Source: a virus
Taxonomy: Duplodnaviria > Heunggongvirae > Uroviricota > Caudoviricetes
Strand: one strand, 5' to 3'
IMG/VR virus record: IMGVR_UViG_2896607866_000008
Location: 1-17,607 of that record
DNA length: 17,607 nucleotides
Position 1 is the stretch's first letter, and the number at the start of each line of letters is the position of its first letter. Both the position numbers and the translations under genes were made by a program. Positions 1 through 17,607 of the stretch are shown here, in pieces. The notes under the pieces were generated by a model. That model was not told the DNA's origin. It did not search any database and saw only the letters and a list, made by a program, of their open reading frames with translations.

Positions 1-163
1 CACAACATCCGAGGACAGCATCGTCCGCCAGCCTACAGAAGTCCGGAAAGCCATGGAAGGTCGTTGGGAGGAGGTACGAATTCTATCATGCAAAAAATAC
101 GTAAAATCGATAACGCCTAGAAATCATTCAATACTCGCACTATCGAAAGTTTACCAGCCAACC

Positions 164-192
164 GCGGCACGTTCCTGCATACGACGTGCCGC
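164..192. other. Perfect 9-bp inverted repeat (GCGGCACGT / ACGTGCCGC) with an 11-nt loop, just past the stop of the 201-824 gene; possible terminator or protein-binding palindrome
   Basis: Read directly: 164-172 is the reverse complement of 184-192. No strong U-tract on either strand. Confidence 0.3.
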
Positions 193-200
193 AGCTTCTG

Positions 201-824
201 TTATTCCACGATAAAATTCCTAACCGAATTCAAATCCTTCAGACTATTCAGCTCTTCCTTCAGCTCCCGCTGACGGCGATAAATCTCATCGTTGCGATCG
301 ACCTGCGCCTGCACCATTGCTGCCGCCAGTTCTTCCAGTTCCGGCATCGACAGTTTCACCTGCTGATTATCGGCATCGCTCCACGCCATATGTGTTTGTG
401 CTGTGACAGATTTTGCCAGCATGACTACCGGGGACAGGCGGCCCAGTGAGTCGGGACCAGCATTCCAGATACGACCGTTCCATTCAAACGTGAACGGCTT
501 CGCCTCCTGTTCTGCGCGCCATGCTTCAATTTCCTGACGTCTGGCCTCTCTGGCCGCTTCCAGCATTTCTGGTGTCACAGTGAATGGGGCTATCTCACCC
601 CATTTGCCGCTTTGCAGTTCCTGCCAGATTTGCTGACCCGTCGGAGCGACATCATCAGCGGTGGCTGTGTAGGGGACTGCCTGGTCCCTGTCGTCAAAAA
701 AAACGTCACAGTCTACTGCGCCACTTTCGGTATAACGGGGATTAATGATTTTTTTAATTTCCACGATGCATTCCTCACGATGTGCGAATAAAAAGCCCGG
801 GCATTGCGCCAGAGACATGTGCAT
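201..824 (-). CDS. Putative phage tail fibre assembly/chaperone-like protein (207 aa)
   Basis: Long ORF immediately downstream of a side-tail-fibre-like gene; acidic coiled C-terminal half typical of fibre chaperones. Not a clear lambda Tfa match, so the family is inferred mainly from position. Start could be M1 or M3. Confidence 0.45.
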   Translation of the reverse strand: MHMSLAQCPGFLFAHREECIVEIKKIINPRYTESGAVDCDVFFDDRDQAVPYTATADDVAPTGQQIWQELQSGKWGEIAPFTVTPEMLEAAREARRQEIEAWRAEQEAKPFTFEWNGRIWNAGPDSLGRLSPVVMLAKSVTAQTHMAWSDADNQQVKLSMPELEELAAAMVQAQVDRNDEIYRRQRELKEELNSLKDLNSVRNFIVE

Positions 825-1128
825 CCGGCACCCCGGACAGGGCGCAATATGACCCCGGTAATGAATGCTCTGAACATCCCGTAATGAAAAATTGTGGGGA
901 TGCTATATACGTTCCGGTGGGAGTACTGGGCACTGAAATCCCCACCGGTCCCAGTCGTGAGCCTCTGTATGACTGCCCCCTGACAAGTCTGATGACTTTA
1001 TCACCGTCAGCTTCTCCCTGGTACGCAACAATAATCAGCCCGCCAATGTCAGGGTCTCCCCATCTGTTGCGGACAGAGCTCGCCACGATTCTGTAAATAA
1101 TATCTTCTGTGGTTATATTTATTTTCAC
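775..1128 (-). CDS. Hypothetical 117-aa ORF with GTG start overlapping the stop of the upstream fibre gene; possibly the out-of-frame C-terminal remnant of a once-longer Stf
   Basis: The ORF begins at a GTG overlapping the TGA of ORF 1125-2039 and ends inside the start of ORF 201-824. No recognisable motif. Confidence 0.2.
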   Translation of the reverse strand: MKINITTEDIIYRIVASSVRNRWGDPDIGGLIIVAYQGEADGDKVIRLVRGQSYRGSRLGPVGISVPSTPTGTYIASPQFFITGCSEHSLPGSYCALSGVPDAHVSGAMPGLFIRTS

Positions 1129-2039
1129 CCAGTCAGTCTGGATATGGGCCAGTAGCAGTAGCGGGTGTGATAAATGGGGCCGTTAATGCCGTAAAAAGTA
1201 AGGGATTTGGCTCTGTACCGCGGTTCTGTTGTCTCAGGGCGTGCATCAGTCCACCGGATGCTGAGCCCCCCTTCAAACCGTGTGTCGGGTATGATGATGC
1301 CGTAGGGGCCAGCAACGGAATATTCACCTGGCAGCGCATTCCTTACCCAGGCCAGGAAATCACTCTTAGTGTCAAAACGGATAACATCTTCAGGCAGAAA
1401 AGCACACCCAAAGCCGAATGCGCCGGGTATCGCCAGACGGCCTTTTGTCCGGTCGTAAATGTCGCTCTGTGCTTCCATCGTGGCCGCACTTTTCAGCCCC
1501 AGATTATCCCGGGACTTCTGTTGTGCCTTTTCGCCTGCTGCTGCGATTTCAGACAGATGGTTAGCCGTTTTCAGGGTGCCGGTCAGCGCAGCATCAATGT
1601 CATTTTTGGCCTGTTCTGCTGCGCGGGCATAACCTGCGGCTGCCGCCACATCCTGCGCCGTCTGCTGTGCGTTTCCGGCTGCGGCCCCGGCGCTCTGCTG
1701 CGCCTGCGCCACCATTTCCTCAAAGCGTTTGACGACATCCGGTTTCAGGTCGCCCTCATCAGGAGCAATCAGAAAGTCATTCAGCGTGCCGGGCTTTGAG
1801 TCCTCATATACAGCAATGTCGCCAACGTTGTACTCGTTGCGCCAGTCCTGTTTCAGATACACACCATATTTTCCAGTCCGCGCATGGAAACAGTATTCAC
1901 CATCGTTTCCTGTCATCACATCAGCAACAGTGTTCATCACCACTTCCGGGGTGTTTACCCGGGATTTCAGAATAATATGGTATCCGGACATGGGGATACC
2001 TGCGCCATCAGTCAGCGCACCTGATATCACTACAAACAT
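1125..2039 (-). CDS. Side tail fibre protein, lambda Stf-type N-terminal domain (304 aa, much shorter than full-length Stf proteins)
   Basis: N-terminus MFVVISGALTDGAGIP...VYEDSKPGTLNDFL matches the conserved prophage tail-fibre N-terminal domain of lambda Stf / Rac StfR (MAVKISGVLKDGTGKP...VYEDSQPGTLNDFL), followed by an Ala/Gln-rich coiled region. Full-length Stf proteins are several hundred residues longer. Confidence 0.65.
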   Translation of the reverse strand: MFVVISGALTDGAGIPMSGYHIILKSRVNTPEVVMNTVADVMTGNDGEYCFHARTGKYGVYLKQDWRNEYNVGDIAVYEDSKPGTLNDFLIAPDEGDLKPDVVKRFEEMVAQAQQSAGAAAGNAQQTAQDVAAAAGYARAAEQAKNDIDAALTGTLKTANHLSEIAAAGEKAQQKSRDNLGLKSAATMEAQSDIYDRTKGRLAIPGAFGFGCAFLPEDVIRFDTKSDFLAWVRNALPGEYSVAGPYGIIIPDTRFEGGLSIRWTDARPETTEPRYRAKSLTFYGINGPIYHTRYCYWPISRLTG

Positions 2040-2062
2040 TGTTTTTCTCGCGATAAATTAAA

Positions 2063-2608
2063 TCAGGAAGAACCTTCCGGAGAGGCGGGCCATTCAATGG
2101 CGTTGTATGAGGATTTATCAGTGATGGTGCTGAAATCCATCGCCTGCAGCGATTTCGCGTAAATACGACAGGCTTTCAGCTTTTCTTTATCTTCGTCGCT
2201 GATTAACCCCAGCAGCAGGTCTTCTTCCCATTCCCCTGTCCGGGCACTGACCTGAGCCAGAAGGGCATCACGCTCATCTTCCGCTTTGAGTCTGTAGTCA
2301 AAGACAAATTCATCATTGCGGTAAAACCAGTAACCCGGCGCGGTAATCCGTCGGTTAGCGGTAATATCAGGAACTTCAATAACACTGGCATTGCGTGGCT
2401 CGATGCCTGTCACATCCTTACCGACCCACACCACGCGACCATCTCCGGTGTAAGCTATTTTTATTGTGTCGCTGGCGAAATTCTTCAGCTCTTCATACCA
2501 GTTTTTTCCGTCTTCTGAAAAAAGCCAGGAGACCGAATATCGTTTTGTCATCTGATATTGTTCTGCTGTTTTCGGATTACCCGCAGTAATATTTTTTAAA
2601 TGCAACAT
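2063..2608 (-). CDS. Tail fibre assembly protein (Tfa family chaperone, 181 aa)
   Basis: N-terminal MLHLKNITAGNPKT...WLFSEDGKNWYEE and C-terminal ...IEWPASP are characteristic of Tfa chaperones (lambda Tfa ends DIEWPALP). It sits directly downstream of the tail fibre gene. Confidence 0.75.
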   Translation of the reverse strand: MLHLKNITAGNPKTAEQYQMTKRYSVSWLFSEDGKNWYEELKNFASDTIKIAYTGDGRVVWVGKDVTGIEPRNASVIEVPDITANRRITAPGYWFYRNDEFVFDYRLKAEDERDALLAQVSARTGEWEEDLLLGLISDEDKEKLKACRIYAKSLQAMDFSTITDKSSYNAIEWPASPEGSS

Positions 2609-2610
2609 TG

Positions 2611-3996
2611 TTAAATACTCGCTACGTTATACCAGGTGCCATTAATCAGTTTTTGCAGTGGTCGGTAATACACACCGTCAACGTTATCCGCTGAGTTACG
2701 GCCGGTATCCGATATCGCCATCCCTGACAGCCCGTGTCCCGAAGGTGCGCAAAATCTCCACGAAACGGTGTTACTGCCGGGGCTGTAATACATTTCATGG
2801 CCATACCGTACATCCTGTACCCCCTCTGTTCGATATTTATAGCGGGCATCGAAGTTTCCGTAATTTAACGGAATTACCTGTCCGTTAACAGTGAACACTA
2901 TGCTGTTATCCGGGTTTCTCTGGCTGAAAAAATGCCAGCCTGAATCATCGCCAAGCTCTGCAACAACAGGCCTGGATGGATTACCCCACAAATAAAACGC
3001 TGCATTTTTCGTGGAGTTGTTGGCGCTGGATAACGTGAATTTTCTGGCAGTTCCGGCCTGAATATTCTTAAAAGCAATAGCCACTCCATTCTGAAAGCGG
3101 AATACACGCTGACTATTAGCATAAACATCCAGAATACCGTCTCCATTCTGTTTAAATCCGGTGTCATTATCACCAAGAACAATTGAATTCCCCCCCAGGG
3201 CGTTCTGAACGCCGATACCCAGCGCACCATTGACCTGCGAACCACCGCCAACAGACACTTTATGCGACATGGATATTTCACCCGTCCGCAAATTAATGGT
3301 GAACGGGCGCAGGGGACCAATATCGCCATTTTCCCCCTGACCTTCACTGGTGGGAATAAGGTGCAGGCACTCTTCCGAACGACGAAAAATCAGGCCAAAA
3401 GCTTCGTTGAAAATCCTCAGCGCATTAACACCACGGATTTTCAGCTCTCCGGTTATTTTATCGCCTTCCCGATGAACATAGCGTTGATCTGACTGCTCTT
3501 TACTGTAAACCTGAAGATTATCCCGTGCCGTCCCTTTATTCTGAAGGTCTGACAGATTGTTCTTCTGCCGCAGGAATATCCTTTTCGGATCCTCAAGAAG
3601 ATTTACCCAGCCCGCACTGTCGGAGCCTTCAGGATCGGTCAGGTTATCGTCTGTGGTATTCAGCCAGACCGCTGTTGTTGCGACTCCGGCGAGAATGGCT
3701 CCTTTTGCATATCCACCAATGGCCCCCGCAAAACCGGCATTATACGTGTACAAACCGCCAGCCTGGGCGAACCGTATTGCTGCGGTAATATCGTACATCA
3801 GACCGTTAAAATCCTTGCCGTGTGGCGGTATACCTCCCGCTGAGACCGCTGTCATGGTCACCGGAGGAAAACCTGAATCATACGCAGCATTACCGCTCTC
3901 TCTGGTCTGCTGTGTCGCCTTGTCCGGGATACGGTTTTTATCTCCGGTACTCGCAAAGGGGACCGCCAGCTGGCGGGGTTTATCACTGGCCTTCAT
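2611..3996 (-). CDS. Tail fibre protein with P2 gpH-like C-terminal receptor-binding region (461 aa)
   Basis: C-terminal block [50 protein letters not shown] ... [11 protein letters not shown] matches the conserved distal tail-fibre domain of P2 H-type fibres as I recall it. Its position between the baseplate I-like gene and Tfa fits. Confidence 0.7.
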
Positions 3997-4587
3997 TACG
4001 GGACTCCTTTAAAACTACTGAAACATAAACACCCGGCGGGGATGGCAGTGCACCCGACGACTGGATAATCGCCAGTTCTGCCAACGAGAGCGCGGACTCA
4101 AAGACGTAACTCATCCTCAGCCCACCATTATTCAGAACATAAGCCCGCCGTTTTTTTCCGAACATAAATCTCAGCATCCGGTTAATATCCGGAACGGAAC
4201 AGTCAGTAATGTTCGACATGGCTTTCATCAGTATCAGCCGCCGGTATACAGCATCAGACAGGTCAACAGTCCGGGTATCCGATTTTCCGTTGTAAAACGG
4301 TGCCTGATTAAACGGACAGGGATCATCCATTACCGGGGTGTCCATCCTGGACTCGCTGAAGCCAGGTAATTAAAATCGTCCTTTACCGTCAGCCGGCGAC
4401 TGACACCCACAATCTTTCCCCAGACATCAAGACCATACTTTTCTGCGGTATCGATGTTCCAGATAAGACCATAAAAATCACTGATAAAACTGTCGGGGGA
4501 AAGCGCTGCGTTAAAGCTGTTAATGAGGGCATTGAGTCGGGGGCTGGCAGCATACTGCGCAAGCACAGTGGCAGCCACATTCTGCAC
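3983..4587 (-). pseudogene. Baseplate/tail protein I-like (Mu gp48 / YmfQ-like), split into 85-aa and 120-aa ORFs by a frameshift near 4330-4345
   Basis: Two adjacent ORFs in different frames overlap by 16 nt; together about 200 aa, the size of YmfQ/gp48-type proteins, and located exactly between the J-like gene and the tail fibre. The upstream frame ends ...SPGWTPR-stop and the downstream frame starts MDTPVMDD. Confidence 0.5.
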
Positions 4588-4588
4588 G

Positions 4589-5830
4589 TTATGCCTCCTG
4601 GAGTTTCACACTGATATCCGACACATCCAGAACCGGAATCTCATCTATCCCGAAAGTGACAGCCGTTGTCCATGACGAACCGTCACGGCTCACAGTAAGG
4701 CCCAGAATATCAATATGTTCCGGATCGGTTTTGTAAATGCCGGCATAGTAGCGCCCGGCAGAGACAACAGAGGCAACCCTTGCCCGCAGACCACCATCTG
4801 TACCATTAAATGCGTCCAGCACGGATTGCTGTACCTGTCGGGTAATATCTGAAGGCAGGTAGTCACTTTTTTTCAGAGTCACACTGACATGCAGACTGAC
4901 GGGTTTGAGTGTCTGCCAGCTGATCACGTATTCAGGATACGGCGGATCGTACTCCTTATCTGCAACAGTGAACGTTGTGTTGCCATTCATATCAATACCC
5001 GGCGGAGCCTTACGCCAGATGGCCGCCGCGATATCTGCCGGGCTGCCGCCGTACACGCCAACATAAAGCGAACCGGGTGTTAATGGATACTGACTGACTC
5101 CGGCTTTTTGTTCTGTTTTTTTCGGATTATGGGTGACGTAAACATCCACCACGTTTTCCACCGTGGAGAGTATTTCACCCCGGATGGCTTCCAGAATATT
5201 CCGGGCATTACGGGCAACTGAATTACGTCGGCGGTTTTCAAAGTCCGCACGGGTTTCCTCATCGCTGCCCGGCACACCGGCACTGGCGTTAGTGACACCT
5301 GACCAGCCAGGTATTGCCTTATAAATTTTATTCAGCGTCCCCACAGGACAGCCGACGGGGCCGGTGGACAAATTCAGAAATACCGCATCAACCTGCCCTG
5401 ATGCGCCGATAGTGACGTCTGACTGACTGACATACTTATAACCGGCCTCATCCTGCGCCATACTGCCCGCCGGGATCAGCGTGCCAACCAGCCCGGTACA
5501 GGTCGCTGTTACTGTCGTACCTGTGGCCCCGCGGCGCTCCAGGAAATAAATCCTGCCTATTGCATCCTGAAAGCGACCACTGGAAAAGTCAGGGTTGATC
5601 TGGTTAACGATATACAGCAACTGATCGTTTTTATCCGCAATAATGGCGCTTTCGCTGGATGCAAGTTGTCCCTGCGGACTGCTCAGACTGGTACTCATGG
5701 CCCCGCCCAGCGCCGCCGAAAAATCAGCAAGCCTGCCGCTCAGAATATCCGCTTCATCCGGCACATTCAGCCCGCTATCCGAAATCTGTACAGCGGGCAC
5801 TGCGGTAGAAAAAGATTTATTTTCACTCAT
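4589..5830 (-). CDS. Baseplate J-like protein (Mu gp47 / P2 gpJ family, 413 aa)
   Basis: Size, position after a W/gp25-like gene and before the I-like gene, and overall resemblance to baseplate J family proteins. ATGA-type overlap with the upstream gene. Confidence 0.7.
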   Translation of the reverse strand: MSENKSFSTAVPAVQISDSGLNVPDEADILSGRLADFSAALGGAMSTSLSSPQGQLASSESAIIADKNDQLLYIVNQINPDFSSGRFQDAIGRIYFLERRGATGTTVTATCTGLVGTLIPAGSMAQDEAGYKYVSQSDVTIGASGQVDAVFLNLSTGPVGCPVGTLNKIYKAIPGWSGVTNASAGVPGSDEETRADFENRRRNSVARNARNILEAIRGEILSTVENVVDVYVTHNPKKTEQKAGVSQYPLTPGSLYVGVYGGSPADIAAAIWRKAPPGIDMNGNTTFTVADKEYDPPYPEYVISWQTLKPVSLHVSVTLKKSDYLPSDITRQVQQSVLDAFNGTDGGLRARVASVVSAGRYYAGIYKTDPEHIDILGLTVSRDGSSWTTAVTFGIDEIPVLDVSDISVKLQEA

Positions 5831-6183
5831 AGCAGTACCGTAAAAATGTCATTATTGGTATCTGTAATACGCAGCACACCTGTTACTGTCCGGGTTTGAT
5901 CAGCTGTGACCAGGCAGACAGCGGCGCTCACGGTCGGCAGTTTAAGTGCTTCCTGTTGCAGAGTGGCATTCACCAGTTGTTTGCCGGGCCAGTGTCCGAG
6001 GATGCGTGGCCAGTAAGGTATGCCAGCCGTTGAGTCGTACCAGCACTCCCCCAGAAAAGTACTGCACGCACACGCCACATCCTGAGCTACCGCATGGGGA
6101 TTATCAGTAATGGCAAGATTTCCGGTATCATCAAGCAGGATATCCCATGTCCCGGTGTCAAGAAGAAGTGATCGTGACTGCAT
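5827..6183 (-). CDS. Baseplate wedge protein (GPW/gp25-like, Mu gp46-like, 118 aa)
   Basis: Small ORF between the spike V-like and J-like genes, 4-nt overlap with the J-like gene; conserved gene order V-W-J-I-H-G. Confidence 0.55.
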   Translation of the reverse strand: MQSRSLLLDTGTWDILLDDTGNLAITDNPHAVAQDVACACSTFLGECWYDSTAGIPYWPRILGHWPGKQLVNATLQQEALKLPTVSAAVCLVTADQTRTVTGVLRITDTNNDIFTVLL

Positions 6184-6195
6184 GTTTTCTCCTGT

Positions 6196-6873
6196 TTACC
6201 GGGGTCCCTGCGTGGTTGAGCCGCCGGACTCAACGCCGCCGTGAACGTGGTTTCCAAAATCAATACCCCCGATGTTCGAACCGCCGGAAAGCCTGGACTG
6301 CCCGGTAACGTCAAGCCCCTTACTGACGGCGGTATCGCCGTTCAGCGCAATTTGTGGTGAATTAACGGTGAAGCTTTTCGGCGCATTAATCACACCCTCA
6401 GGCGCGGATATCTCCACTTTCCAGGGAGATACAATCCGTATCTGGTTGTCATCAAATACCACAAACTGGACGGGATCACCGTTGAGCACGCCACCCAGCC
6501 AGATGGCATCAGCATAATTATGGGTACGCTTTGATCCCGGCATCGCAGCCTGACGCGTGGCTTTTACCGCACTGATATCCCGATCGCAGATGGCAAGAAA
6601 ACCGATATCCCCCACATGTGGCGGCATAATCACCGCATTACCGCCCCCCTGTAGTCGCCATACGGGAATGTTATAAATCACCTCATGTTCAACCGGGGAA
6701 CCGTCTGCTGCAACGCCCATTACCATCGGTCGGGCCTCAATAAATCCCTCTTCCACGGCTACCACCCGTCCCAGAGTGATAAACGCATGACGTCCGAGAA
6801 ACTGCCGCAGCATAAAGTCCTGTGCATTGATTTCGCTGTTCACGTCTGTCGGGTTACTGAGTGGTTGTGCCAT
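6196..6873 (-). CDS. Baseplate spike / assembly protein V-like (Mu gp45-like, 225 aa)
   Basis: Gly-rich C-terminus with HxH motif (GIDFGNHVHGGVESGG) typical of phage central spike proteins; position upstream of the W-like gene. Confidence 0.65.
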   Translation of the reverse strand: MAQPLSNPTDVNSEINAQDFMLRQFLGRHAFITLGRVVAVEEGFIEARPMVMGVAADGSPVEHEVIYNIPVWRLQGGGNAVIMPPHVGDIGFLAICDRDISAVKATRQAAMPGSKRTHNYADAIWLGGVLNGDPVQFVVFDDNQIRIVSPWKVEISAPEGVINAPKSFTVNSPQIALNGDTAVSKGLDVTGQSRLSGGSNIGGIDFGNHVHGGVESGGSTTQGPR

Positions 6874-7723
6874 TTTCTTCAGCCCTCATCATGGTACAGT
6901 TGGAACTCCACGGACCGCCCACGGTTCGCGAAGTAATGGTGTGTATCACCCCTGTGATCGTATAATCGCCCGTCATATCAGGCAGTGACGATTCCAGATG
7001 CGCTGGCCTGCCAGTAAAGAGATCGGGGCAGAATATCGTGGTGGCGCTGAGTCCGGTCATGGTGTAAACCGGATAGCCAGTCAGTCCGTGATCCGGCGAA
7101 ATCAGTACCGGCGGAATATTCCGGTTCTGCCCTTTCGGCCAGATGGTGACTTTCTCCACATTCCCCAGATCAATGTTAATATCGGCGGCTGAAGCGACAT
7201 CCAGCATTTGTTGTACAACATTACCGGAAAAATGCGGGTCAGACAGACTGCGGCTGACCCCCTGGTTTTCAAATCCAAGCCCGACAGTTGACGCCAGCGC
7301 ACGGATAATATCTGCAACCGCAACATCGCCCTTTGCGCTGAAATCTGCCGCCGGCTGATTACGCAGATTAAAATGAATCTGTCCTGTCAGAATGAGCGGA
7401 ATATCCGGCGCCTGGTTGTAGTCGGCGTATGCATCAGTAATATCACCTTCAAAAATAAGCCGCCCGTCGGCCCACAGCCGCATTTTATTTGCGGTACTCT
7501 GCTCCTGTCGCCACACACCGCGCCAGCTTAAATTCGTCATATGCGCCGGTGACATTCCCCAGATATACAGCGTGATTTGTGTACCAGCCACCCCTCCATA
7601 TACGGCAATACTGGCAAAACAGCTTGCGTCGGTAATGGTCAGCATATTGCCCTGGCCATTACCAAACGTTCGTCCGTCTGAAAGAGTGAACTCCACCGTT
7701 ATTTTATGTTGTCTGTAGCTCAT
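6854..7723 (-). CDS. Phage tail/baseplate-associated protein (possible hub-like, 289 aa)
   Basis: Long ORF in the tail module immediately upstream of the spike gene, 20-nt overlap with it. No diagnostic motif recognised; assignment is by context. Confidence 0.4.
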
Positions 7724-8022
7724 ATCAGTTCCTCAGGTAACAGCCAGTAGAGCCGGTACCGGGATCCGAGCCCCCGCCAGTCAGGGTCACTATTCCCCTC
7801 CGTGTCGGTAAAAAACAGGTCCCCCTGAAACGGCAGGTATCCGTACCGGACAATCCGGTTATTATTCAGACACAGCACGCCATACAGGCACGGTTCACCA
7901 TTAACAATGATATCGATATACATCCCCGTAGTACGCTGATTCAGGCGAATGGTGCAGACCTGAGCGCCCAGTGTCACCGTAAACTGCTGGGCTTTAACGG
8001 GAGATAAAACAATTTCCAGCAT
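7720..8022 (-). CDS. Hypothetical phage protein (100 aa)
   Basis: ORF with a 4-nt ATGA-type overlap to the downstream 289-aa gene, suggesting translational coupling. Confidence 0.4.
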
Positions 8023-8288
8023 CAGGTGATCCCCCTGTTCGTGGCGCTTCGTCTGTCAGCGTCTGACGGTTGTGTCACCGACGCCGTAACTGGCTGCGTT
8101 TTAACCGATGCGGCCCCTTTTGCTTTATCGTTGTCCGTGGGAGACGACTTATCCGTACTTCCCACTGACACCTCTCCTGTATTCATTACGGTCTGAAATA
8201 CCGCAGTAACCGTCAGTAAGGTCGGACCACTCATCGTCTTTACGCGGATCGCTACGCCAGTGAAACGTAAACACCGGGATTTTTCCAC
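8022..8288 (-). CDS. Small hypothetical ORF with low-complexity Ser/Thr/Asp-rich tail; start uncertain (M1 8288, M19 8234 or M35 8186)
   Basis: ORF in a different frame overlapping the 3' end of the truncated terminase ORF. It may be a small YmfR-like gene or an out-of-frame remnant. Confidence 0.25.
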
Positions 8289-9018
8289 TGTGCCGCTTCT
8301 GTGCGAAGGGGTTGTTCATACCGTTAACCGATGAGAGATCGATACGACATCGGGTTGTCTGGGAAAGCGCGGCATCAATAAGTAATGGTCGCTGGAGAAA
8401 AGCAGCCTCATCCACAAAATAAAGGGTCGTACGGTCACCACGACCGATATTATCGCCAGCCTCACCTTTGATAACCGCGCCAGTTTCAGGAAACTCAACA
8501 CGCATATATGGCGCGTGCTTCTTCTCGCTCCACGAACCGCGAAACTCTACAGGTAGTGTTTCCACGAACTTGCGCGCCTTCCAGAACAATGCTTTCGGGT
8601 CACCGGTGCTGTCGACGTATTCCTCTTTACGGGAGCCGAAACCGATAACCATTTCTTTGTTGAAGAGACAAAGCGAGCAGGCCAGTCCGATCGCGGTCCA
8701 ACTGAGCCCCATTTCACGGGATTTTTCGGTAATACCATTCTCCCGATTGCTCCAGCGTTTCATAATCCAGTGGATCCACTCCTCCTGCTTAGGGAAGAGT
8801 AAAAACGGAATGGTCACCGGCAGGCCATAATCAATATTACGCGGGTCCGTTGTCATGCCCCAGTCGATAATGAACTGAGCCGGGTTGGTACGGTAAAACT
8901 GTTTTAGTGCAGGCAATATTTCAGGATTCTGGCGAATGCGCTGTAGGCGTTCCATCCGCCATTCAAAAACCATCTGGTAATCAGGATGTTTAAAATCGAA
9001 GGGGAATGGTAACGGCAT
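8149..9018 (-). CDS. Terminase large subunit, N-terminal ATPase domain only (289 aa; nuclease domain absent), likely a truncated remnant
   Basis: Walker-B-like LYFVDEAAF and downstream SSVNG motif typical of TerL ATPase domains. The ORF stops after 289 aa with no nuclease domain, and the next genes are baseplate genes rather than portal/capsid. Confidence 0.55.
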
Positions 9019-9020
9019 AC

Positions 9021-9253
9021 TTAGCCCATCATTTTTCTATACACCTCTGCGGCCTGCTCAGGCGTTAATTTGGTAATTTCTGTTCTGACTGGTCCTCCGT
9101 CAGCGCCAGTCACTTCATTTTTGACGTTGTCTTTAAACGCCTGAACAGAAACATGGCGCCCAAGCAACTCAAGGTTTTTAACCTTATCAGGCCATTTGAT
9201 TTTCTTCAGAAGTGCGGCGCTATCTGCGGATACCATCTCCACGACATCCATTC
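9021..9253 (-). pseudogene. 3' fragment (about 77 codons) of a phage gene upstream of terminase large subunit, 5'-truncated by IS911
   Basis: The reading frame runs from inside the IS911 left end (so the N-terminal 24 codons are IS-encoded) to a stop 3 nt before the TerL start. Identity unknown; a small-terminase or DNA-binding protein is a guess. Confidence 0.35.
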
Positions 9254-9325
9254 TGAAGTGGCACACTGAATTTGGCCACCTGAACAGAGGTGATATGCTC
9301 ACCTCAGAACAACACAGGTGCTCCA

Positions 9326-10494
<1,169 letters not shown>

Positions 10495-10669
10495 CCACTT
10501 CAATCCCCCATGTCACATAGCTTGAACTGAATCAGATCCTTCACAAGCTGCTCAGCCTTTTTAATGGCCTTCTTCTCTTTCTTCCGACGAGTCATGAGAG
10601 CGCTATGAGGTAGCCTGAGTTTAACGGACACTCCTTCCTGAAATAGAATGGCATCAGAAGGAGCTAATA

Positions 10670-10972
10670 ATGAGCAGAAAAACCCAACGTTACTCTAAAG
10701 AGTTCAAAGCCGAAGCTGTCAGAACGGTTCTTGAAAATCAACTTTCGATCAGTGAAGGCGCTTCCCGATTATCCCTTCCTGAAGGCACTTTAGGACAATG
10801 GGTTACCGCCGCCAGAAAAGGGCTCGGTACTCCTGGTTCCCGCACGGTGGCTGAACTGGAATCTGAAATTCTGCAACTGCGTAAGGCGTTAAATGAAGCT
10901 CGCCTTGAGCGAGATATATTAAAAAAAGCAACAGCGTATTTTGCACAGGAGTCGCTGAAAAATACGCGTTAA
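10670..10972 (+). CDS. IS600 transposase OrfA (100 aa)
   Basis: MSRKTQRYSKEFKAEAVRTVLENQLSISEGASRLSLPEGTLGQWV...; an A7G slippery run lies near its 3' end. Confidence 0.9.
   Translation: MSRKTQRYSKEFKAEAVRTVLENQLSISEGASRLSLPEGTLGQWVTAARKGLGTPGSRTVAELESEILQLRKALNEARLERDILKKATAYFAQESLKNTR
10921..10928 (+). promoter_or_regulatory. IS600 putative -1 frameshift slippery run (AAAAAAAG)
   Basis: Read directly near the end of orfA, with orfB in the -1 frame downstream; frameshifting is inferred by analogy with other IS3-family elements. Confidence 0.5.
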
Positions 10973-11007
10973 TCGAACAATGGCGACAACAATTTCCCAT
11001 TGAAGCG

Positions 11008-11826
11008 ATGTGTCAGGTATTTGGTGTATCCAGGAGCGGTTATTACAACTGGGTACAGCATGAACCCTCAGACAGAAAACAAAGTGATGAGCGGCTAAAA
11101 CTGGAGATTAAGGTGGCACATATCCGCACTCGCGAAACATATGGAACCCGGCGGCTCCAGACGGAGCTGGCAGAGAATGGCATCATCGTTGGTCGTGACC
11201 GACTGGCACGTCTTCGTAAGGAGCTAAGGCTACGCTGTAAGCAGAAACGCAAGTTCAGAGCGACTACGAACCCGAACCACAATCTGCCAGTTGCGCCAAA
11301 TCTGCTGAACCAGACGTTCGCTCCTACAGCACCAAATCAGGTCTGGGTGGCGGACCTGACGTATGTTGCCACACAGGAGGGATGGTTGTACCTCGCTGGC
11401 ATCAAAGATGTTTATACGTGCGAAATTGTCGGCTACGCCATGGGAGAGCGCATGACAAAAGAGCTGACAGGTAAAGCCCTGTTTATGGCGCTCAGGAGCC
11501 AGCGCCCACCTGCCGGGCTAATCCACCACTCTGATCGAGGTTCACAGTACTGCGCATACGATTACCGGGTCATACAGGAGCAGTCTGGTCTGAAAACATC
11601 AATGTCGCGTAAAGGTAACTGTTACGACAACGCTCCGATGGAAAGCTTCTGGGGAACGCTGAAAAATGAGAGCCTGAGCCACTATCGTTTTAATAACCGG
11701 GATGAAGCCATCTCAGTAATACGGGAATACATTGAGATTTTCTACAATCGTCAGCGTCGTCACTCTCGTCTGGGGAATATCTCCCCGGCAGCCTTCAGGG
11801 AAAAATATCATCAGATGGCTGCTTAA
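11008..11826 (+). CDS. IS600 transposase OrfB (DDE domain, 272 aa from first Met)
   Basis: ...NQVWVADLTYVATQEGWLYLAGIKDVYTCEIVGYAMG...HHSDRGSQYCA... typical IS3-family DDE transposase. Confidence 0.9.
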   Translation: MCQVFGVSRSGYYNWVQHEPSDRKQSDERLKLEIKVAHIRTRETYGTRRLQTELAENGIIVGRDRLARLRKELRLRCKQKRKFRATTNPNHNLPVAPNLLNQTFAPTAPNQVWVADLTYVATQEGWLYLAGIKDVYTCEIVGYAMGERMTKELTGKALFMALRSQRPPAGLIHHSDRGSQYCAYDYRVIQEQSGLKTSMSRKGNCYDNAPMESFWGTLKNESLSHYRFNNRDEAISVIREYIEIFYNRQRRHSRLGNISPAAFREKYHQMAA

Positions 11827-12142
11827 AAAAAGAACAAATGGTAGTGTCCGCTATTGCCAGTACACCTCAGTAATCCATTTCGACTATAACTGACAGGTCA
11901 TCACGACGTATGACTGCGTATTTGCTACTAAATAGTTTCTTTATTTTTTCCACGATGCCTCCAAGTTTATAAGTACAAACGGTTATATCCACATAGAGAC
12001 AAAAATATTAATCTGAAAAACATTTATTTCACGCCGTATATTTGATTGTTTAATGTGCAAGTACAATGACTTTTATTTTTTGTTGTGTATATAATCAAAT
12101 ATATGGTTATTTTTCACCCTGCGTATTCAGCACGCAACAAAA

Positions 12143-12162
12143 AACCCGCCGAAGCGGGTTTA
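12143..12162 (-). terminator. Rho-independent terminator at the 3' end of the hok mRNA
   Basis: AACCCGC-CGAA-GCGGGTT hairpin; on the minus strand it is followed by TTTTTTGTTG, on the plus strand only by TTT. Confidence 0.6.
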
Positions 12163-12228
12163 GTGCGGGTGCGTTGAGGATGCCTGACACATGAGAGGTG
12201 GCGAGGGATTTCTCCCCCGCCTGGTCTC

Positions 12229-12384
12229 TTACTCCTCAGGTTCGTAAGCTGTGAAGACAGCGACCTCCGTCTGGCCGGTTCGGATTCGTACCTCGCAGAG
12301 GTCTTTCCTCGTTACCAGTGCCGTCACTATGACGGTTAAACAGATGACGATCAGGGCGATTAACATCGCCTTTTGCTGCTTCAT
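12229..12384 (-). CDS. hokD: Hok/Gef family type I toxin (51 aa), HokD/RelF-like
   Basis: Translation MKQQKAMLIALIVICLTVIVTALVTRKDLCEVRIRTGQTEVAVFTAYEPEE read directly; matches the Hok/Gef consensus and, to my recollection, E. coli HokD (RelF) specifically. Strong SD (AGGAG) 8 nt upstream. Confidence 0.85.
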   Translation of the reverse strand: MKQQKAMLIALIVICLTVIVTALVTRKDLCEVRIRTGQTEVAVFTAYEPEE

Positions 12385-12441
12385 AGCCTGCTTCTCCTTG
12401 CCTTTCGGCACGTAAGAGGCTAACCTACATTTGTGAGACAT
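12229..12441 (-). CDS. Mok-like overlapping reading frame (70 aa, in-frame N-terminal extension of Hok)
   Basis: An in-frame ATG 19 codons upstream of the hok start (MSHKCRLASYVPKGKEKQA-) with a GAGG SD; the same architecture as mokC/hokC, which share a stop codon. Confidence 0.55.
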   Translation of the reverse strand: MSHKCRLASYVPKGKEKQAMKQQKAMLIALIVICLTVIVTALVTRKDLCEVRIRTGQTEVAVFTAYEPEE

Positions 12442-12723
12442 AGATTGGGCCTCAGATTAATGTTAAGCGTCTTGCAGGACGCGTAATGTTAACTGGGGCT
12501 TTTCTCTGTCTGCCTTACAGTGGCATGCCCGAGGCAGACAGCCTCAAGCACCCGCAGCAATCTTACCGATACCGATAAGAAAACGCTATTTTTTATTGCC
12601 AGCACCTTCTATCCAGGCTAATTTATCTGCGTCAGAACGGCGCAATGCGCTCGCCTGAGATACGTTTACTTGCCATGGTAACAACAGGTAACGGCAATTG
12701 CTGTTTCTGTTTTGTTTCCTTCA

Positions 12724-12757
12724 AAAACCCCGGACCATCAATCCGGGGTTTTTGTTT
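12724..12757. terminator. Bidirectional rho-independent terminator
   Basis: AAAACCCCGG-(9-nt loop)-CCGGGGTTTT flanked by A-runs and T-runs on both sides; it lies 2 nt downstream of the 27-aa ORF stop on the minus strand. Confidence 0.6.
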
Positions 12758-12758
12758 G

Positions 12759-12842
12759 TTAACCCCAACGGCAAATCGAATACACCACCAGCGCCACCGC
12801 CATCGCAATTCCTACCGTGGTGAATGCCTCAGGCCAGGTCAT
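12759..12842 (-). CDS. Small hydrophobic peptide (27 aa, MTWPEAFTTVGIAMAVALVVYSICRWG), translationally coupled to the DUF551 gene
   Basis: Not in the ORF track (too short). Its ATG overlaps the TGA of the upstream gene (AATCAATGACC), a GGAGGT SD sits 6 nt upstream, it has a single predicted transmembrane helix, and it is followed at once by a terminator. Confidence 0.35.
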   Translation of the reverse strand: MTWPEAFTTVGIAMAVALVVYSICRWG

Positions 12843-13204
12843 TGATTCACCTCCTGCGGTGGTTCCGGTAGCGGCATCCAGTGAGTTGAGCTCTCTACTT
12901 CAACGCCGTCTTTGTCCACAAAAGCCATCTTATTCCCGCCACGAGTGGGGCAAAAAACCTTATCCCAGGAACCGGGGAATACATTCCCGAGATCATCGAG
13001 AAGAATCACATCGCAATATTCAGCAGGAACTGCATCACTACAGCTTATCCAGCCAGCCAGAGTTACCGGAGAGTTGCCAGCCTTACGCATGGCCATTTCC
13101 ACGATTTCAACCATATCTCCTGGTGGAATTTTACAAAGTTGCCCAATACATTTCTGCTGCCTGGCATATTCGAGAATGTGCTCCAATTTGGTTCGATTAA
13201 TCAT
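12839..13204 (-). CDS. DUF551-family phage protein (121 aa)
   Basis: C-terminal ...THWMPLPEPP motif characteristic of DUF551 proteins of lambdoid prophage early regions; TAATG overlap with the upstream gene. Confidence 0.55.
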   Translation of the reverse strand: MINRTKLEHILEYARQQKCIGQLCKIPPGDMVEIVEMAMRKAGNSPVTLAGWISCSDAVPAEYCDVILLDDLGNVFPGSWDKVFCPTRGGNKMAFVDKDGVEVESSTHWMPLPEPPQEVNQ

Positions 13205-13869
13205 TATTTATCTCCCTTAAGCATGGCAGCGCGGCAGGCGTTCCAGCCATCAACATAATCAAACGTATTACTATCGTTTGGCCCGATTTCATCCGGCACT
13301 ATCGGCTCTGGTTGGATAGTGACGTTGGCAAAGGCAGCACGCAAACCGGTTTTAATTTCTTCGATTTCATCAGAGCCAAGCGATGAATCTGACAGTGCGT
13401 GATGGAATGCGTAAGCCATGTCGTCGTTTACTGCAACCGGCACTGCCGGCGCTGCGTAAAGCGGTGTTATATCTGCCCGAAAATCACATGCTTTATGCAG
13501 TCGTACCCAACGCTCAACTTCCGCTTTGTCAAAATATATAGCAGTGAACGTATTAGATTCCTGGTCAACTTGAGTAAACGTCACCTTCCACGCTACAGCT
13601 ACGGCTTTCCATCCATCAGGTTGTCGCATTCGCGGGGCAGCATAAAGCTCATGCATTCCATCAGGCAGCGAGTGACCCACATACTCACCGAACCCGTCAA
13701 TACACATGCCCCCATCTTCAACAATGCATTCCGCTACAGGCTCTGCTTCCAGTGATGCCAGAGCGATAAGCGCCAGTTCACGAATTTCACCGCCGTCTAT
13801 ATCGTCAATATCATCGCGGCCAGAAATGTTAGCCAGCCATTGCAGTCGCTCTTTGGTAATAGTGGTCAT
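13204..13869 (-). CDS. Hypothetical phage protein (221 aa, acidic, two LYAAP-containing segments)
   Basis: ORF tightly coupled on both sides (ATGA overlap with HNH upstream, TAATG with DUF551 downstream); SD GAAGGGG. No recognisable catalytic motif. Confidence 0.5.
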   Translation of the reverse strand: MTTITKERLQWLANISGRDDIDDIDGGEIRELALIALASLEAEPVAECIVEDGGMCIDGFGEYVGHSLPDGMHELYAAPRMRQPDGWKAVAVAWKVTFTQVDQESNTFTAIYFDKAEVERWVRLHKACDFRADITPLYAAPAVPVAVNDDMAYAFHHALSDSSLGSDEIEEIKTGLRAAFANVTIQPEPIVPDEIGPNDSNTFDYVDGWNACRAAMLKGDK

Positions 13870-14231
13870 GCCGTAGCCCCTTCTTGATATTTTTCAAACC
13901 AGAACACAACCGGGTCAGATTTCATTTCAACCAATCCCATACGAACCAGCGCTTTGCCTTTCCCGGACGCAAGGAATTCACGACGACCATCACTGATAAT
14001 TCGTCGATAATCTTCCAGGCTACTGCAATGCTTGTGCAGATTGCATGGGTGGCATTCTGGTACCATGTTGGATATATCGTCACGTTCCTGGTGAAGCATA
14101 TTTCCATCAAAACGAATGACCGGTTTTACATGGTCTGCATGCCACTTTTCGCCAAGTTCGCAGCCGCAATAAGCGCAGCGACCACCGAACTTCATGCGCA
14201 GTTCTGCACGTTGTTTTTTCGTCAGTGCCAT
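13866..14231 (-). CDS. HNH endonuclease (121 aa from MALTKK; the ORF track shows a longer 151-aa frame from 14321)
   Basis: CAYCGCELGEKWHADHVKPV....CHPCNLHK is an HNH motif with two Cys pairs. The start at 14231 is preferred because of an AAGGA SD and the immediately preceding stop of the 72-aa ORF. Confidence 0.75.
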   Translation of the reverse strand: MALTKKQRAELRMKFGGRCAYCGCELGEKWHADHVKPVIRFDGNMLHQERDDISNMVPECHPCNLHKHCSSLEDYRRIISDGRREFLASGKGKALVRMGLVEMKSDPVVFWFEKYQEGATA

Positions 14232-14232
14232 A

Positions 14233-14451
14233 TCAGCTTTCCTTATACGGATTAATTTTATTGTGCAGTGTGTTGAATGACGCCCATACCACGTCGTTAT
14301 ACAATTCAATAACTGGCTCAATTATTTTTCCGATTATCCAGACAAAAATTAGCGGGGATATCGGTGTCATCAACACGATAAACAGAATGAGAAACAGGAA
14401 TTCTGTTGTTCTACTCTTTCGCGGATATTTTTTTCTAAATAATGTAACCAT
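14233..14451 (-). CDS. Small predicted membrane protein (72 aa), coupled to the HNH gene
   Basis: Hydrophobic stretch FLFLILFIVLMTPISPLIFVWIIGKII; its stop is 1 nt before the HNH ATG. The SD is weak, so coding status is uncertain. Confidence 0.35.
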   Translation of the reverse strand: MVTLFRKKYPRKSRTTEFLFLILFIVLMTPISPLIFVWIIGKIIEPVIELYNDVVWASFNTLHNKINPYKES

Positions 14452-14457
14452 TCATTA

Positions 14458-14473
14458 CCGCCCTTTCGGGCGG
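14458..14473 (-). other. GC-rich stem-loop (CCGCCC-TTTC-GGGCGG) in the intergenic space between the truncated upstream gene and the 72-aa ORF
   Basis: Perfect 6-bp stem with 4-nt loop read directly; AU-rich but no clean U-tract after it on the minus strand. Confidence 0.3.
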
Positions 14474-14543
14474 TCTCCTGATGATTTGAGGGTGCAGAAA
14501 TCCCTCCGGTTAAGGATTAAATTTTTAACAGTGCTAAATTTAA

Positions 14544-14769
14544 TTATTCAGTTCTGGATTTTGTCGCCCTGCGTATCCGCGCTTTCGCATTACGCTCAAT
14601 CTGTATCAGCTTTTCTATATTTCTCCGCCTTTCCTGTTCCTCCTGGCGCAATAGTCTTACATCATCTGCCAGTCTGGTTTCTCTTTTTGCCACAGAGAGC
14701 ATCCAGTCAAACGGCTCCACAACCGCACCGCAGATTTTACAGCGGACCTGACGCTCTTTTTCGTCAACC
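14544..14769 (-). pseudogene. 3' fragment (75 codons) of an unknown gene, 5'-truncated by IS911 copy 2
   Basis: Open frame ...VDEKERQVRCKICGAVVEPFDWMLSVAKRETRLADDVRLLRQEEQERRRNIEKLIQIERNAKARIRRATKSRTE-stop runs directly out of the IS911 right end at 14770. Confidence 0.35.
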
Positions 14770-14777
14770 TGAAGTGG

Positions 14778-15931
<1,154 letters not shown>

Positions 15932-16000
15932 TGGAGCACCTGTGTTGTTCTGAGGTGAGCATATCACCTCTGTTCAGGTGGCCAAATTCAGTGTGCCACT

Positions 16001-16857
16001 TCAGGTATTTGGTGTATCCAGGAGCGGTTATTACAACTGGGTACAGCATGAACCCTCAGACAGAAAACAAAGTGATGAGCGGCTAAAACTGGAGATTAAG
16101 GTGGCACATATCCGCACTCGCGAAACATATGGAACCCGGCGGCTCCAGACGGAGCTGGCAGAGAATGGCATCATCGTTGGTCGTGACCGACTGGCACGTC
16201 TTCGTAAGGAGCTAAGGCTACGCTGTAAGCAGAAACGCAAGTTCAGAGCGACTACGAACCCGAACCACAATCTGCCAGTTGCGCCAAATCTGCTGAACCA
16301 GACGTTCGCTCCTACAGCACCAAATCAGGTCTGGGTGGCGGACCTGACGTATGTTGCCACACAGGAGGGATGGTTGTACCTCGCTGGCATCAAAGATGTT
16401 TATACGTGCGAAATTGTCGGCTACGCCATGGGAGAGCGCATGACAAAAGAGCTGACAGGTAAAGCCCTGTTTATGGCGCTCAGGAGCCAGCGCCCACCTG
16501 CCGGGCTAATCCACCACTCTGATCGAGGTTCACAGTACTGCGCATACGATTACCGGGTCATACAGGAGCAGTCTGGTCTGAAAACATCAATGTCGCGTAA
16601 AGGTAACTGTTACGACAACGCTCCGATGGAAAGCTTCTGGGGAACGCTGAAAAATGAGAGCCTGAGCCACTATCGTTTTAATAACCGGGATGAAGCCATC
16701 TCAGTAATACGGGAATACATTGAGATTTTCTACAATCGTCAGCGTCGTCACTCTCGTCTGGGGAATATCTCCCCGGCAGCCTTCAGGGAAAAATATCATC
16801 AGATGGCTGCTTAAAAAAAGAACAAATGGTAGTGTCCGCTATTGCCAGTACACCTCA
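16001..16857 (+). mobile_element. IS600, 5'-truncated partial copy (lacks about the first 408 bp including the left end and orfA); junction with the IS911 left end at about 16001-16003
   Basis: Sequence from GGTATTTGGTGTATCCAGGAGCGG onward is co-linear with copy 1 from 11013 onward; the right end ...GTACACCTCA is at 16857. Confidence 0.85.
16004..16814 (+). pseudogene. IS600 orfB lacking its orfA partner and frameshift context (the ORF-track protein MAKFSVPLQ... has an IS911-derived chimeric N-terminus)
   Basis: The OrfB sequence is identical to copy 1 from QVFGVSRSGYY onward; the upstream 26 nt of the ORF belong to the IS911 end. Confidence 0.7.
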
Positions 16858-17293
16858 GGACGCCTGCATCAAAACGTTCAGAAACGACATCGGTCAAACC
16901 ATAATCAATGGTAAGCTGAATATCAATTTCAGGATGCGATTTCAGGAATGTGCGCATGGCTGGTAACAATATCGTTTTTGCTGCATGTTCTACAGTAGTA
17001 ATACGTATTGTCCCGGATGGGCGGTTCTGCAGATCGCTCAGGGATGTCAGGGCAGAATCTATGTCATGCAATATAGGGCCAAGAACAGACAAAAGATGCT
17101 CGCCCGCTTCAGTGGGTACAACGCTGCGCGTGGTTCGCGTCAGAAGCCGCAATCCCAATCGTTCTTCTATACGGCGCACTATCTGGCTTAAAGCTGACTG
17201 CGCCATGCTCAGGCGGGCTGCTGCGCGAGTGAAGCTACGCTCCTCTGCAACGACGACAAACGCCATCAGATCAGCGATTTCTTCACGCTTCAT
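16858..17293 (-). pseudogene. LysR-family transcriptional regulator, 3'-truncated by the IS600 insertion (about 145 native codons remain)
   Basis: N-terminal HTH MKREEIADLMAFVVVAEERSFTRAAARLSMAQSALSQIVRRIEERLGLRLLTRTTRSV is the classic LysR signature; the frame runs into the IS600 right end at 16857, giving a chimeric tail. Confidence 0.75.
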
Positions 17294-17430
17294 TCAGTAT
17301 CTCCATACAATCTATTAATCATTTAAATGATAGGTCTAATCATGATTTAGGGTCTAATCAACTTAATGATCAATATCTATAGTGATATCACCAACCGTCA
17401 AAACGAACCGACAACTCCATGAGGAACTGA

Positions 17431-17566
17431 ATGATGAATAATAAAGTCAGCTTCACTAACAGCAATAATCCAACCATCTCTTTGTCTGCAGTGATCTATT
17501 TCCCTCCAAAATTTGATGAAACCCGTCAGTATCCGGCAATTGTGGTATCTCACCCAGGTGGGGGCG
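17431..17566 (+). pseudogene. Dienelactone hydrolase-like / alpha-beta hydrolase gene, 5' 45 codons only, interrupted by IS2
   Basis: MMNNKVSFTNSNNPTISLSAVIYFPPKFDETRQYPAIVVSHPGGGV, then the reading frame enters the IS2 terminal repeat. Divergent from the LysR gene. The hydrolase family assignment is from memory of similar N-termini. Confidence 0.5.
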
Positions 17567-17607
17567 TGGATTTGCCCCTATATTTCCAGACATCTGTTAT
17601 CACTTAA
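17567..17607 (-). mobile_element. IS2 terminal inverted repeat (right end, element continues beyond the window)
   Basis: TGGATTTGCCCCTATATTTCCAGACATCTGTTATCACTTAA matches the IS2 right inverted repeat as I recall it; only 41 bp fall in the window. Confidence 0.7.

Follow-up and report, generated by a model that had tools for sequence, protein, structure and literature searches.

A predicted complete hok/mok/sok type I module of the hokD/hokW subfamily on a lambdoid prophage remnant

Is a hok locus that sits on a prophage fragment still complete enough to serve as a type I toxin-antitoxin module? This question is raised by a stretch of 17,607 nucleotides (nt) of Caudoviricetes DNA (positions 1 to 17,607 of the IMG/VR virus record IMGVR_UViG_2896607866_000008), which is referred to here as the window. 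An original prediction had placed an apparently intact hok/mok locus at 12143-12650. The functional unit, which runs from the hok -10 hexamer to the end of the terminator, occupies 12565..12136 on the minus strand and lies inside that span except for the end of the T-run (12142..12136). The locus very probably represents a hok/mok/sok type I module that is complete in sequence and belongs to the hokD/hokW subfamily; the canonical mechanism of plasmid R1 is expected for it. Every element of the module is present, in the known order and with the known complementarity; the toxin is identical to HokD and the promoter of the antisense RNA is identical to that of sokW.

The hok coding sequence (12229..12384, minus strand) encodes 51 amino acids (aa) and is followed by a stop codon. 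Its product matches the Pfam family HOK_GEF with 81.6 bits (cut-off 22, E-value 3e-23), is 100% identical to HokD of Escherichia coli K-12 and shares 42% identity with the R1-type Hok. A length of about 50 aa and an N-terminal hydrophobic helix, which characterize Hok/Gef toxins, are both found in this open reading frame (ORF). The Shine-Dalgarno sequence (SD) AAGGAG is located at 12399-12394, with the ATG 9 nt further on. The mok ORF (12229..12441, minus strand, 70 aa) shares the frame of hok. Mok is Hok with an N-terminal extension, since the mok ATG at 12441 reads in frame into hok; the SD of mok (GAGG, 12453-12450) is found 8 nt upstream of this ATG. Thus, the complete HokD/RelF-like toxin ORF with a strong SD and the Mok-like in-frame extension with its own SD, both described in the original prediction, are borne out. 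Mok shares 90% identity with MokW of phage 933W and 71% with MokC of K-12, and mokW and mokC are likewise each in frame with their own hok. From the R1-type scheme, translational coupling of mok to hok would be expected. Most alleles have mok and hok in frame, and a 1-nt insertion or deletion puts some of them out of frame.

A further observation concerns Tyr47 of Hok, whose codon UAC (12246-12244, minus strand) lies within a UACG motif (GCUUACGAA). In the K-12 hokD mRNA, TadA performs A-to-I editing that changes a Tyr to Cys at about 6% (PMC12214031). The Tyr47 codon of the window corresponds to this reported editing site.

The region upstream of hok matches the sok/hok leader of Rfam (RF01794) at 12553..12379 on the minus strand. 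The match covers the complete model (1-157 of 157) with 118.1 bits at a gathering score of 59, and the E-value of 8e-27, computed for the whole window, means that it is not due to chance. The predicted full-length hok mRNA (12136..12553, minus strand) comprises about 415 nt, and its 3' end would coincide with the T-run of the terminator. The leader was aligned with those of 933W (mokW/hokW/sokW), a Rac-type phage, K-12 hokC/mokC/sokC and an R1-type plasmid locus, which matches the R1 hok sequence at 100%. This alignment shows an invariant block, GG.GCUUGAGGCU.UCUG.CUC, which comprises tac and the beginning of the 5' hairpin. Also invariant are AGCCCC of ucb, GAGGC of the mok SD, CAAGGAGAAG of the hok SD and the hok start.

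The individual elements of the mRNA are all encoded on the minus strand. The tac element (GGGUGCUUGAGG, 12542..12553) is located at the predicted 5' end. Its partner in a predicted metastable 5' hairpin (CCUCGGGCAU, 12525..12534) was identified in folds of the 3'-shortened mRNA. The ucb element (AAGCCCC, 12495..12501), an anti-SD, corresponds to A70-C75 of R1 (PMC9841398). The Sok-target hairpin (12416..12453) agrees with the Rfam consensus structure and has an inner 9-bp stem with a 7-nt loop; at its base, the mok SD GAGGC (12453-12449) pairs with dcb (GCCUC, 12420-12416). Downstream of hok, a stable 3' hairpin (12200..12221) is located like the final stem-loop in truncated R1 mRNA (PMC9841398), and 3' trimming would be expected to halt there and to leave the 3' end of the truncated mRNA. 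The fbi element (CCUCAACGCACCC, 12167..12179) is nearly invariant, with a diversity of 0.017 among 71 distinct homologues.

In the minimum free energy (MFE) fold of the full-length mRNA (-178.4 kcal/mol), nt 1-12 pair with nt 375-387 (tac/fbi) through 12 bp with one bulge. The same fold hides the mok SD by pairing it with ucb. The documented tac/fbi pairing of the R1-type control was recovered by the same procedure. In MFE folds of the 3'-shortened mRNA, the metastable hairpin (nt 3-12 with nt 20-29) is present at four of the six end points, and pairing of tac with ucb at the other two. Three alternative RNA states (tac/fbi, tac/ucb and the metastable hairpin) have been described for R1 (PMC9841398). 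The mRNA ends in an intrinsic terminator (12136..12161, minus strand), which consists of an 8-bp stem with five G-C pairs and a loop of four (12161..12142) and a T-run that continues to 12136. A terminator scan of the 800-bp region gave three sites where 0.8 were expected. It found 12161..12136, in agreement with the rho-independent terminator that had been assigned to the locus.

The original prediction had made functionality conditional on an intact Sok RNA, and by homology such an RNA is predicted. The three independent reference RNAs (sokW of 933W, sokC of K-12 and R1 Sok) agree and map to the plus strand from 12433/12434 to 12503-12509. The coordinates transferred from them define a predicted Sok RNA of 71-77 nt (12433..12509, plus strand). 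Its 5' tail would be complementary to the start of mok and to the target loop, and would be followed by a long hairpin and then by a U-rich tail. For the predicted 77-nt RNA, the MFE is -33 kcal/mol with a z-score of -5.8, and none of 200 shuffled sequences is as stable. The sok promoter (12398..12426, plus strand) comprises TTGCCT (12398-12403), a spacer of 17 nt and TAACCT (12421-12426). It is located inside mok, and the predicted Sok is antisense to the translation-initiation region of mok. Base for base, its -35 hexamer, spacer and -10 hexamer are those of the sokW promoter of 933W, and mutation of the sokW -10 hexamer abolishes antitoxin activity (PMC8621323). The sok and hok promoters are not reported by the standard promoter scan because both fall below its threshold of 4/6 per hexamer; a laxer custom scoring was used for the two.

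The closest characterized relatives are the hokW/mokW/sokW loci of the Stx2 phages 933W and Sp5 (VT2-Sakai), which belong to the same subfamily and have the same gene order as the window. The 933W locus is 92.6% identical in nucleotide sequence over 392 nt. It shares the extended Sok hairpin and, like the window locus, lies in a lambdoid prophage 3' of a conserved 27-aa ORF. The two loci differ in the C-terminus of Hok (TAYEPEE in the window, VDYESEK in HokW), in codons 2-4 of mok (MSHKC in the window, MLNTC in 933W) and in the 5' tail of Sok (GUGAGACAUAG... in the window, GUUCAGCAUGG... in 933W). Furthermore, the hok promoter of the window has TAAGAT and no -35 hexamer, whereas that of 933W has TAGAAT with TTTGCG. 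An upstream insert of about 190 bp that bears a terminator is found in the window but not in 933W, and the terminator hairpin of the window has no homology in the 933W copy.

The K-12 loci differ from that of the window by what they have lost. K-12 hokD (relF, Qin prophage) is 98% identical in coding sequence, 3' untranslated region (UTR), fbi and terminator. Its homology to the window begins just about 17 nt upstream of the ATG, with relBE beyond, and it therefore lacks tac, ucb, the mok start, the Sok gene and the sok promoter. As judged from the sequences, K-12 hokD is a 5'-truncated remnant of a window-type prophage locus. K-12 hokC/mokC/sokC (gef), which is chromosomal while the window locus is prophage-borne, has a window-like architecture with a conserved tac block. 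However, IS186 is inserted 19 bp past the hokC stop codon and has removed the 3' elements that the window keeps, and the hairpin of sokC is 18 nt shorter than that predicted for the window Sok. The contrast drawn in the original prediction, with hokD beside relBE without mok and sok and chromosomal hok loci inactivated, among other lesions by an insertion sequence (IS), is therefore correct. A published summary agrees that the hok loci of K-12 are all damaged (PMC12214031).

The order of elements in R1 hok/sok (parB), namely tac, the metastable hairpin, ucb, the mok SD, dcb, fbi and Sok, is also that of the window. The proposed check by alignment with the R1 and K-12 loci located the sok promoter, tac, ucb and fbi. 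In R1, mok and hok are in different frames and fbi lies at the extreme 3' end, whereas in the window mok is in frame and fbi is followed by a separate terminator hairpin. The R1 locus resides on a plasmid and its post-segregational killing is proven.

Over 485 nt (12136-12620), the window locus is identical to seven of the eight related chromosomes. Where 73 distinct homologues vary, the window always has a base that is also found in others. Accordingly, no private lesion was detected in comparison with these 73 homologues and eight chromosomes.

The elements suggest the following mechanism, which was worked out for plasmid R1. A weak promoter would produce the hok mRNA of about 415 nt, and in the nascent transcript the 5' tac element would be kept in the metastable hairpin. 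In the full-length RNA, tac would be locked to the 3' fbi element and ucb would cover the mok SD, so that the RNA would be neither translated nor bound by Sok. Slow 3' trimming would strip off the terminator and fbi. Subsequently, tac would re-pair with ucb, and the mok SD would form the target hairpin with dcb. Abundant but unstable Sok (plus strand, 12433 to about 12509) would then bind this hairpin via its 5' tail, and the duplex would be cleaved. If the supply of Sok stops, mok would be translated and hok along with it by coupling, and the 51-aa Hok would depolarise the inner membrane. Evidence for duplex cleavage by RNase III, 3' processing and membrane killing comes from the relatives hokW-sokW (PMC8621323) and R1 (PMC9841398); for the window, the transcript ends, the processing step, the expression levels and killing are inferred.

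The locus is carried by a lambdoid remnant of the nin region (11869..14769, minus strand), which agrees with the prophage fragment proposed originally. Over 2901 bp, this remnant of 2.9 kb is 99.7% identical to lambdoid prophages that are more complete and reside in IS-rich chromosomes (L007-L014, including L009 and L011). Related chromosomes are 99.6-99.8% identical across the fragment and are devoid of the IS600 insertion of the window. The edges of the remnant are formed by this IS600 (10606-11868, 99.8% identical to an annotated IS600) on one side and by another IS3-family element (from about 14770) on the other. As had been predicted, the nearest IS is outside the locus: IS600 ends at about 11868, some 270 bp past the terminator. 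It disrupts a 70-aa ORF downstream of hok and leaves a chimeric ORF of 41 aa (11867-11992, minus strand). In related Shigella-like chromosomes the 70-aa ORF is intact and an IS1 is located further downstream.

The remnant includes ORFs for a DUF551 protein and an HNH/NinG-like protein. The DUF551 gene lies upstream of hok together with a hydrophobic ORF of 27 aa and a strong bidirectional terminator; relBE is missing there, which confirms the predicted lack of relE at this position. An alignment with 933W and another locus revealed an allele-specific insert of about 190 bp (12566..12757, minus strand) that separates the 27-aa ORF from the hok -10 hexamer. The bidirectional terminator (12754-12722) lies inside this insert. 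In 933W-type loci, the 27-aa ORF stops about 45 nt before the hok +1 position, and no terminator stands between hok and the early genes upstream of it. Among 5426 complete E. coli genomes, only 30 carry the insert, as a single copy; the eight Shigella-like chromosomes all have it. It is unannotated, and no Rfam family matches it significantly. The possibility that it is a repeated mobile element was rejected, given its single copy in each of the 30 genomes. With its terminator, the insert may shield hok from the early transcription of the phage.

This setting bears on the role that the locus may have had in the phage. In complete prophages, the hok locus has a conserved position, with the genes of the nin region on one side and the Q antiterminator on the other. 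Together with the open path from the early genes to hok in 933W-type alleles, this position fits a helper of phage lysis or release as in Sp5 hokW-sokW, where mitomycin C lowers sokW and raises HokW in a way that depends on RecA and phage release halves without the locus (PMC8621323). Prophage induction would lower Sok and raise Hok, and the resulting membrane damage would assist lysis. The effect in Sp5 is only two-fold, however. The window allele bears the upstream terminator insert, and neither Q nor a lysis cassette nor a repressor was found in the 2.9-kb fragment. Such a function would be the one for which the family is selected, and it would be orphaned here because the remnant lacks lysis or late genes. 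As an account of the window locus, a role in lysis is possible but doubtful.

The hok -10 hexamer TAAGAT (12560..12565, minus strand) is located 6 nt upstream of the predicted +1 position. Its register matches that of TAGAAT in 933W and Rac, TATAAT in K-12 hokC and TATGAT in the R1 type. In 933W-type loci, the promoter reads TTGnnn, 17 nt and TAGAAT, with a score of 8-10/12. An alternative site with a score of 8/12 is found at 12615-12588 (minus strand) in the window and would yield a 5'-extended hok RNA.

Several points weigh against the proposed module. The hok promoter of the window scores 6/12, the lowest of 16 variants (7-10/12 for the others); the best match to a -35 hexamer is 2/6, and the insert stands in place of the usual -35 region. 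The tac/ucb pairing is the MFE structure at only two of the six trial 3' ends. In a covariation test of the target hairpin with 19 distinct variants, 83% of the cells are paired compared to 26-60% in slid controls; no compensatory double changes were observed among these variants, which is no better than in shuffled sequences. Thus, the target hairpin is supported here by conservation and the Rfam model and not by covariation. Function of the window copy is predicted from its sequence, as the activity data all come from relatives. Intact chromosomal hokA, hokB and hokC were reportedly inactive in tests of post-segregational killing and with rifampicin (bioRxiv 10.1101/2025.08.07.668861).

A rival explanation is a silent relic of intact sequence, in which Sok is made, the hok mRNA is too weak or never activated, and the module is undecayed but inert. 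The promoter score and the displaced -35 region favor this explanation, as do the terminator just upstream, which would block read-through, the reduction of the prophage to 2.9 kb between IS elements and the inactivity of intact hokA, hokB and hokC. The damage to all hok loci of K-12 also indicates that their loss is tolerated. On the other hand, TAAGAT retains the critical T, the A and the final T in exact register, and the R1 hok promoter is weak by design as well. All eight related chromosomes and 30 E. coli genomes retain the same allele. The 485 nt are devoid of private mutations, compared to 8-12 differing sites per 2.9 kb in the flanks, but this lack is not significant, as no more than about 1-2 differences would be expected. 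Taken together, a silent relic is considered unlikely.

An abortive-infection style of defence, in which an incoming phage shuts down host transcription, Sok is depleted and Hok is released, is quite improbable: T4 exclusion has been reported for R1 hok/sok and hok is enriched about four-fold in prophages, but in that survey hok was not enriched in the vicinity of defence systems (bioRxiv 10.1101/2025.08.07.668861), and weak hok transcription is expected for the window allele. Most likely, the sequence-complete module persists in the IS-bounded remnant of 2.9 kb as a selfish or neutral passenger.

Within the predicted module, sequence diversity is concentrated in one segment on the minus strand (12449-12424). 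It comprises the spacer between the mok SD and the ATG as well as mok codons 2-5, and corresponds to the 5' tail of Sok and to the loop and upper stem of the target hairpin. Among 71 distinct full-length homologues, the pairwise diversity of this segment is 0.28, with 0.36 at 12438-12430. It amounts to 0.028 in the sok promoter, 0.07-0.10 in the rest of the leader and 0.12 in the terminator. At least ten alleles of the segment exist, including MSHKC (window), MLNTC (933W), MLYTR, MLDTC and MNGKS. Nevertheless, 20 of 21 variants fold into the same hairpin with -11.5 to -15.5 kcal/mol, and the exception has -9.6 kcal/mol. Tentatively, the prophage hok/sok loci may have diversified into mutually orthogonal classes of antisense specificity, like plasmid incompatibility determinants. 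Of two same-genome pairs of copies that were compared, one has different and the other identical Sok alleles. Sok and Mok were outside the analysis of the latest hok survey.

The 3' UTR of hok (12139-12220, minus strand), with its stable hairpin, fbi and terminator, gave a match to isrK, the Hfq-binding small RNA of Gifsy-1; the Rfam score of 30.6 bits is below the gathering score of 50. A descent of IsrK from a hok 3' end was considered and rejected. A blastn search of phages with this 3' UTR yielded no Gifsy or Salmonella record among the 30 matches listed, while two records named after Salmonella were among those unlisted. The match probably reflects a generic shape of hairpin plus terminator.

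Some features of the surroundings deserve mention. The 27-aa hydrophobic ORF upstream of hok (MTWPEAFTTVGIAMAVALVVYSICRWG, 12759-12842, minus strand) is unannotated and conserved, and it overlaps the stop codon of the DUF551 gene. Of 95 loci compared, 24 contain its exact motif, and a diverged form occurs in 933W. It may encode a small membrane protein that travels with hok. At the other edge of the remnant, the IS3-family element consists of orfA (15967-15629) and orfB (15602-14778) and is directly followed by a partial second IS600 (16001-16858). This IS block (14770-16858) separates the lambdoid remnant from the gene of a LysR-type regulator. Its nested junctions point to heavy erosion of the region by IS elements. 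Positions 1 to about 9250 of the window are occupied by an unrelated contractile-tail module. In the databases, this E. coli-type hok locus is also found in PP818812.1 ('Actinobacillus phage vB_Apl-pPE4'), with 97% identity over the full length and the downstream flank. The Actinobacillus host label of this record is unexpected for a lambdoid enterobacterial module.

The original prediction had identified the locus correctly, but the rarity that it implied for an intact copy is not supported. Outside K-12, intact copies are the norm and have been named and tested (PMC8621323). Of 5426 complete E. coli genomes, 4006 contain at least 80% of the 411-nt mRNA region; those with any match have a median of two and up to nine matching places. 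An occurrence in about three quarters of the complete E. coli genomes makes the locus ordinary. By the same limit of at least 80%, it is present in 63 phage records. In IMG/VR, more than 576 stretches encode a relative of this Hok, and the best 80 of these encode an identical Hok. RefSeq names such loci hokD, and the 933W locus has been annotated as mokW/hokW/sokW since its deposition. Takada et al. (2021) established hokW-sokW of Sp5 as a working type I system, in which SokW acts from its own promoter and depends partly on RNase III and Hfq (PMC8621323). The HokD peptide is among the Hok homologues that were previously shown to be toxic and that served as toxicity controls (bioRxiv 10.1101/2025.08.07.668861). 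The locus of the window is thus an already known and abundant element.

As a matter of annotation, the locus is of little importance. Automatic annotation applies the label 'hokD' alone to such loci and leaves out mok and Sok. For the hok family, it is the damaged hokD of K-12 that is the exception, whereas lambdoid prophages and their remnants carry the ancestral, complete hokD/hokW-type module as standard cargo. The window provides an example of this predicted complete module from an IS-rich, Shigella-like genome. Its allele is a natural variant for asking how much hok transcription the system needs. If the orthogonal specificity classes proposed above exist, co-resident hok/sok copies would not cross-protect, and the classes would bear on the coexistence of several type I copies in one genome.

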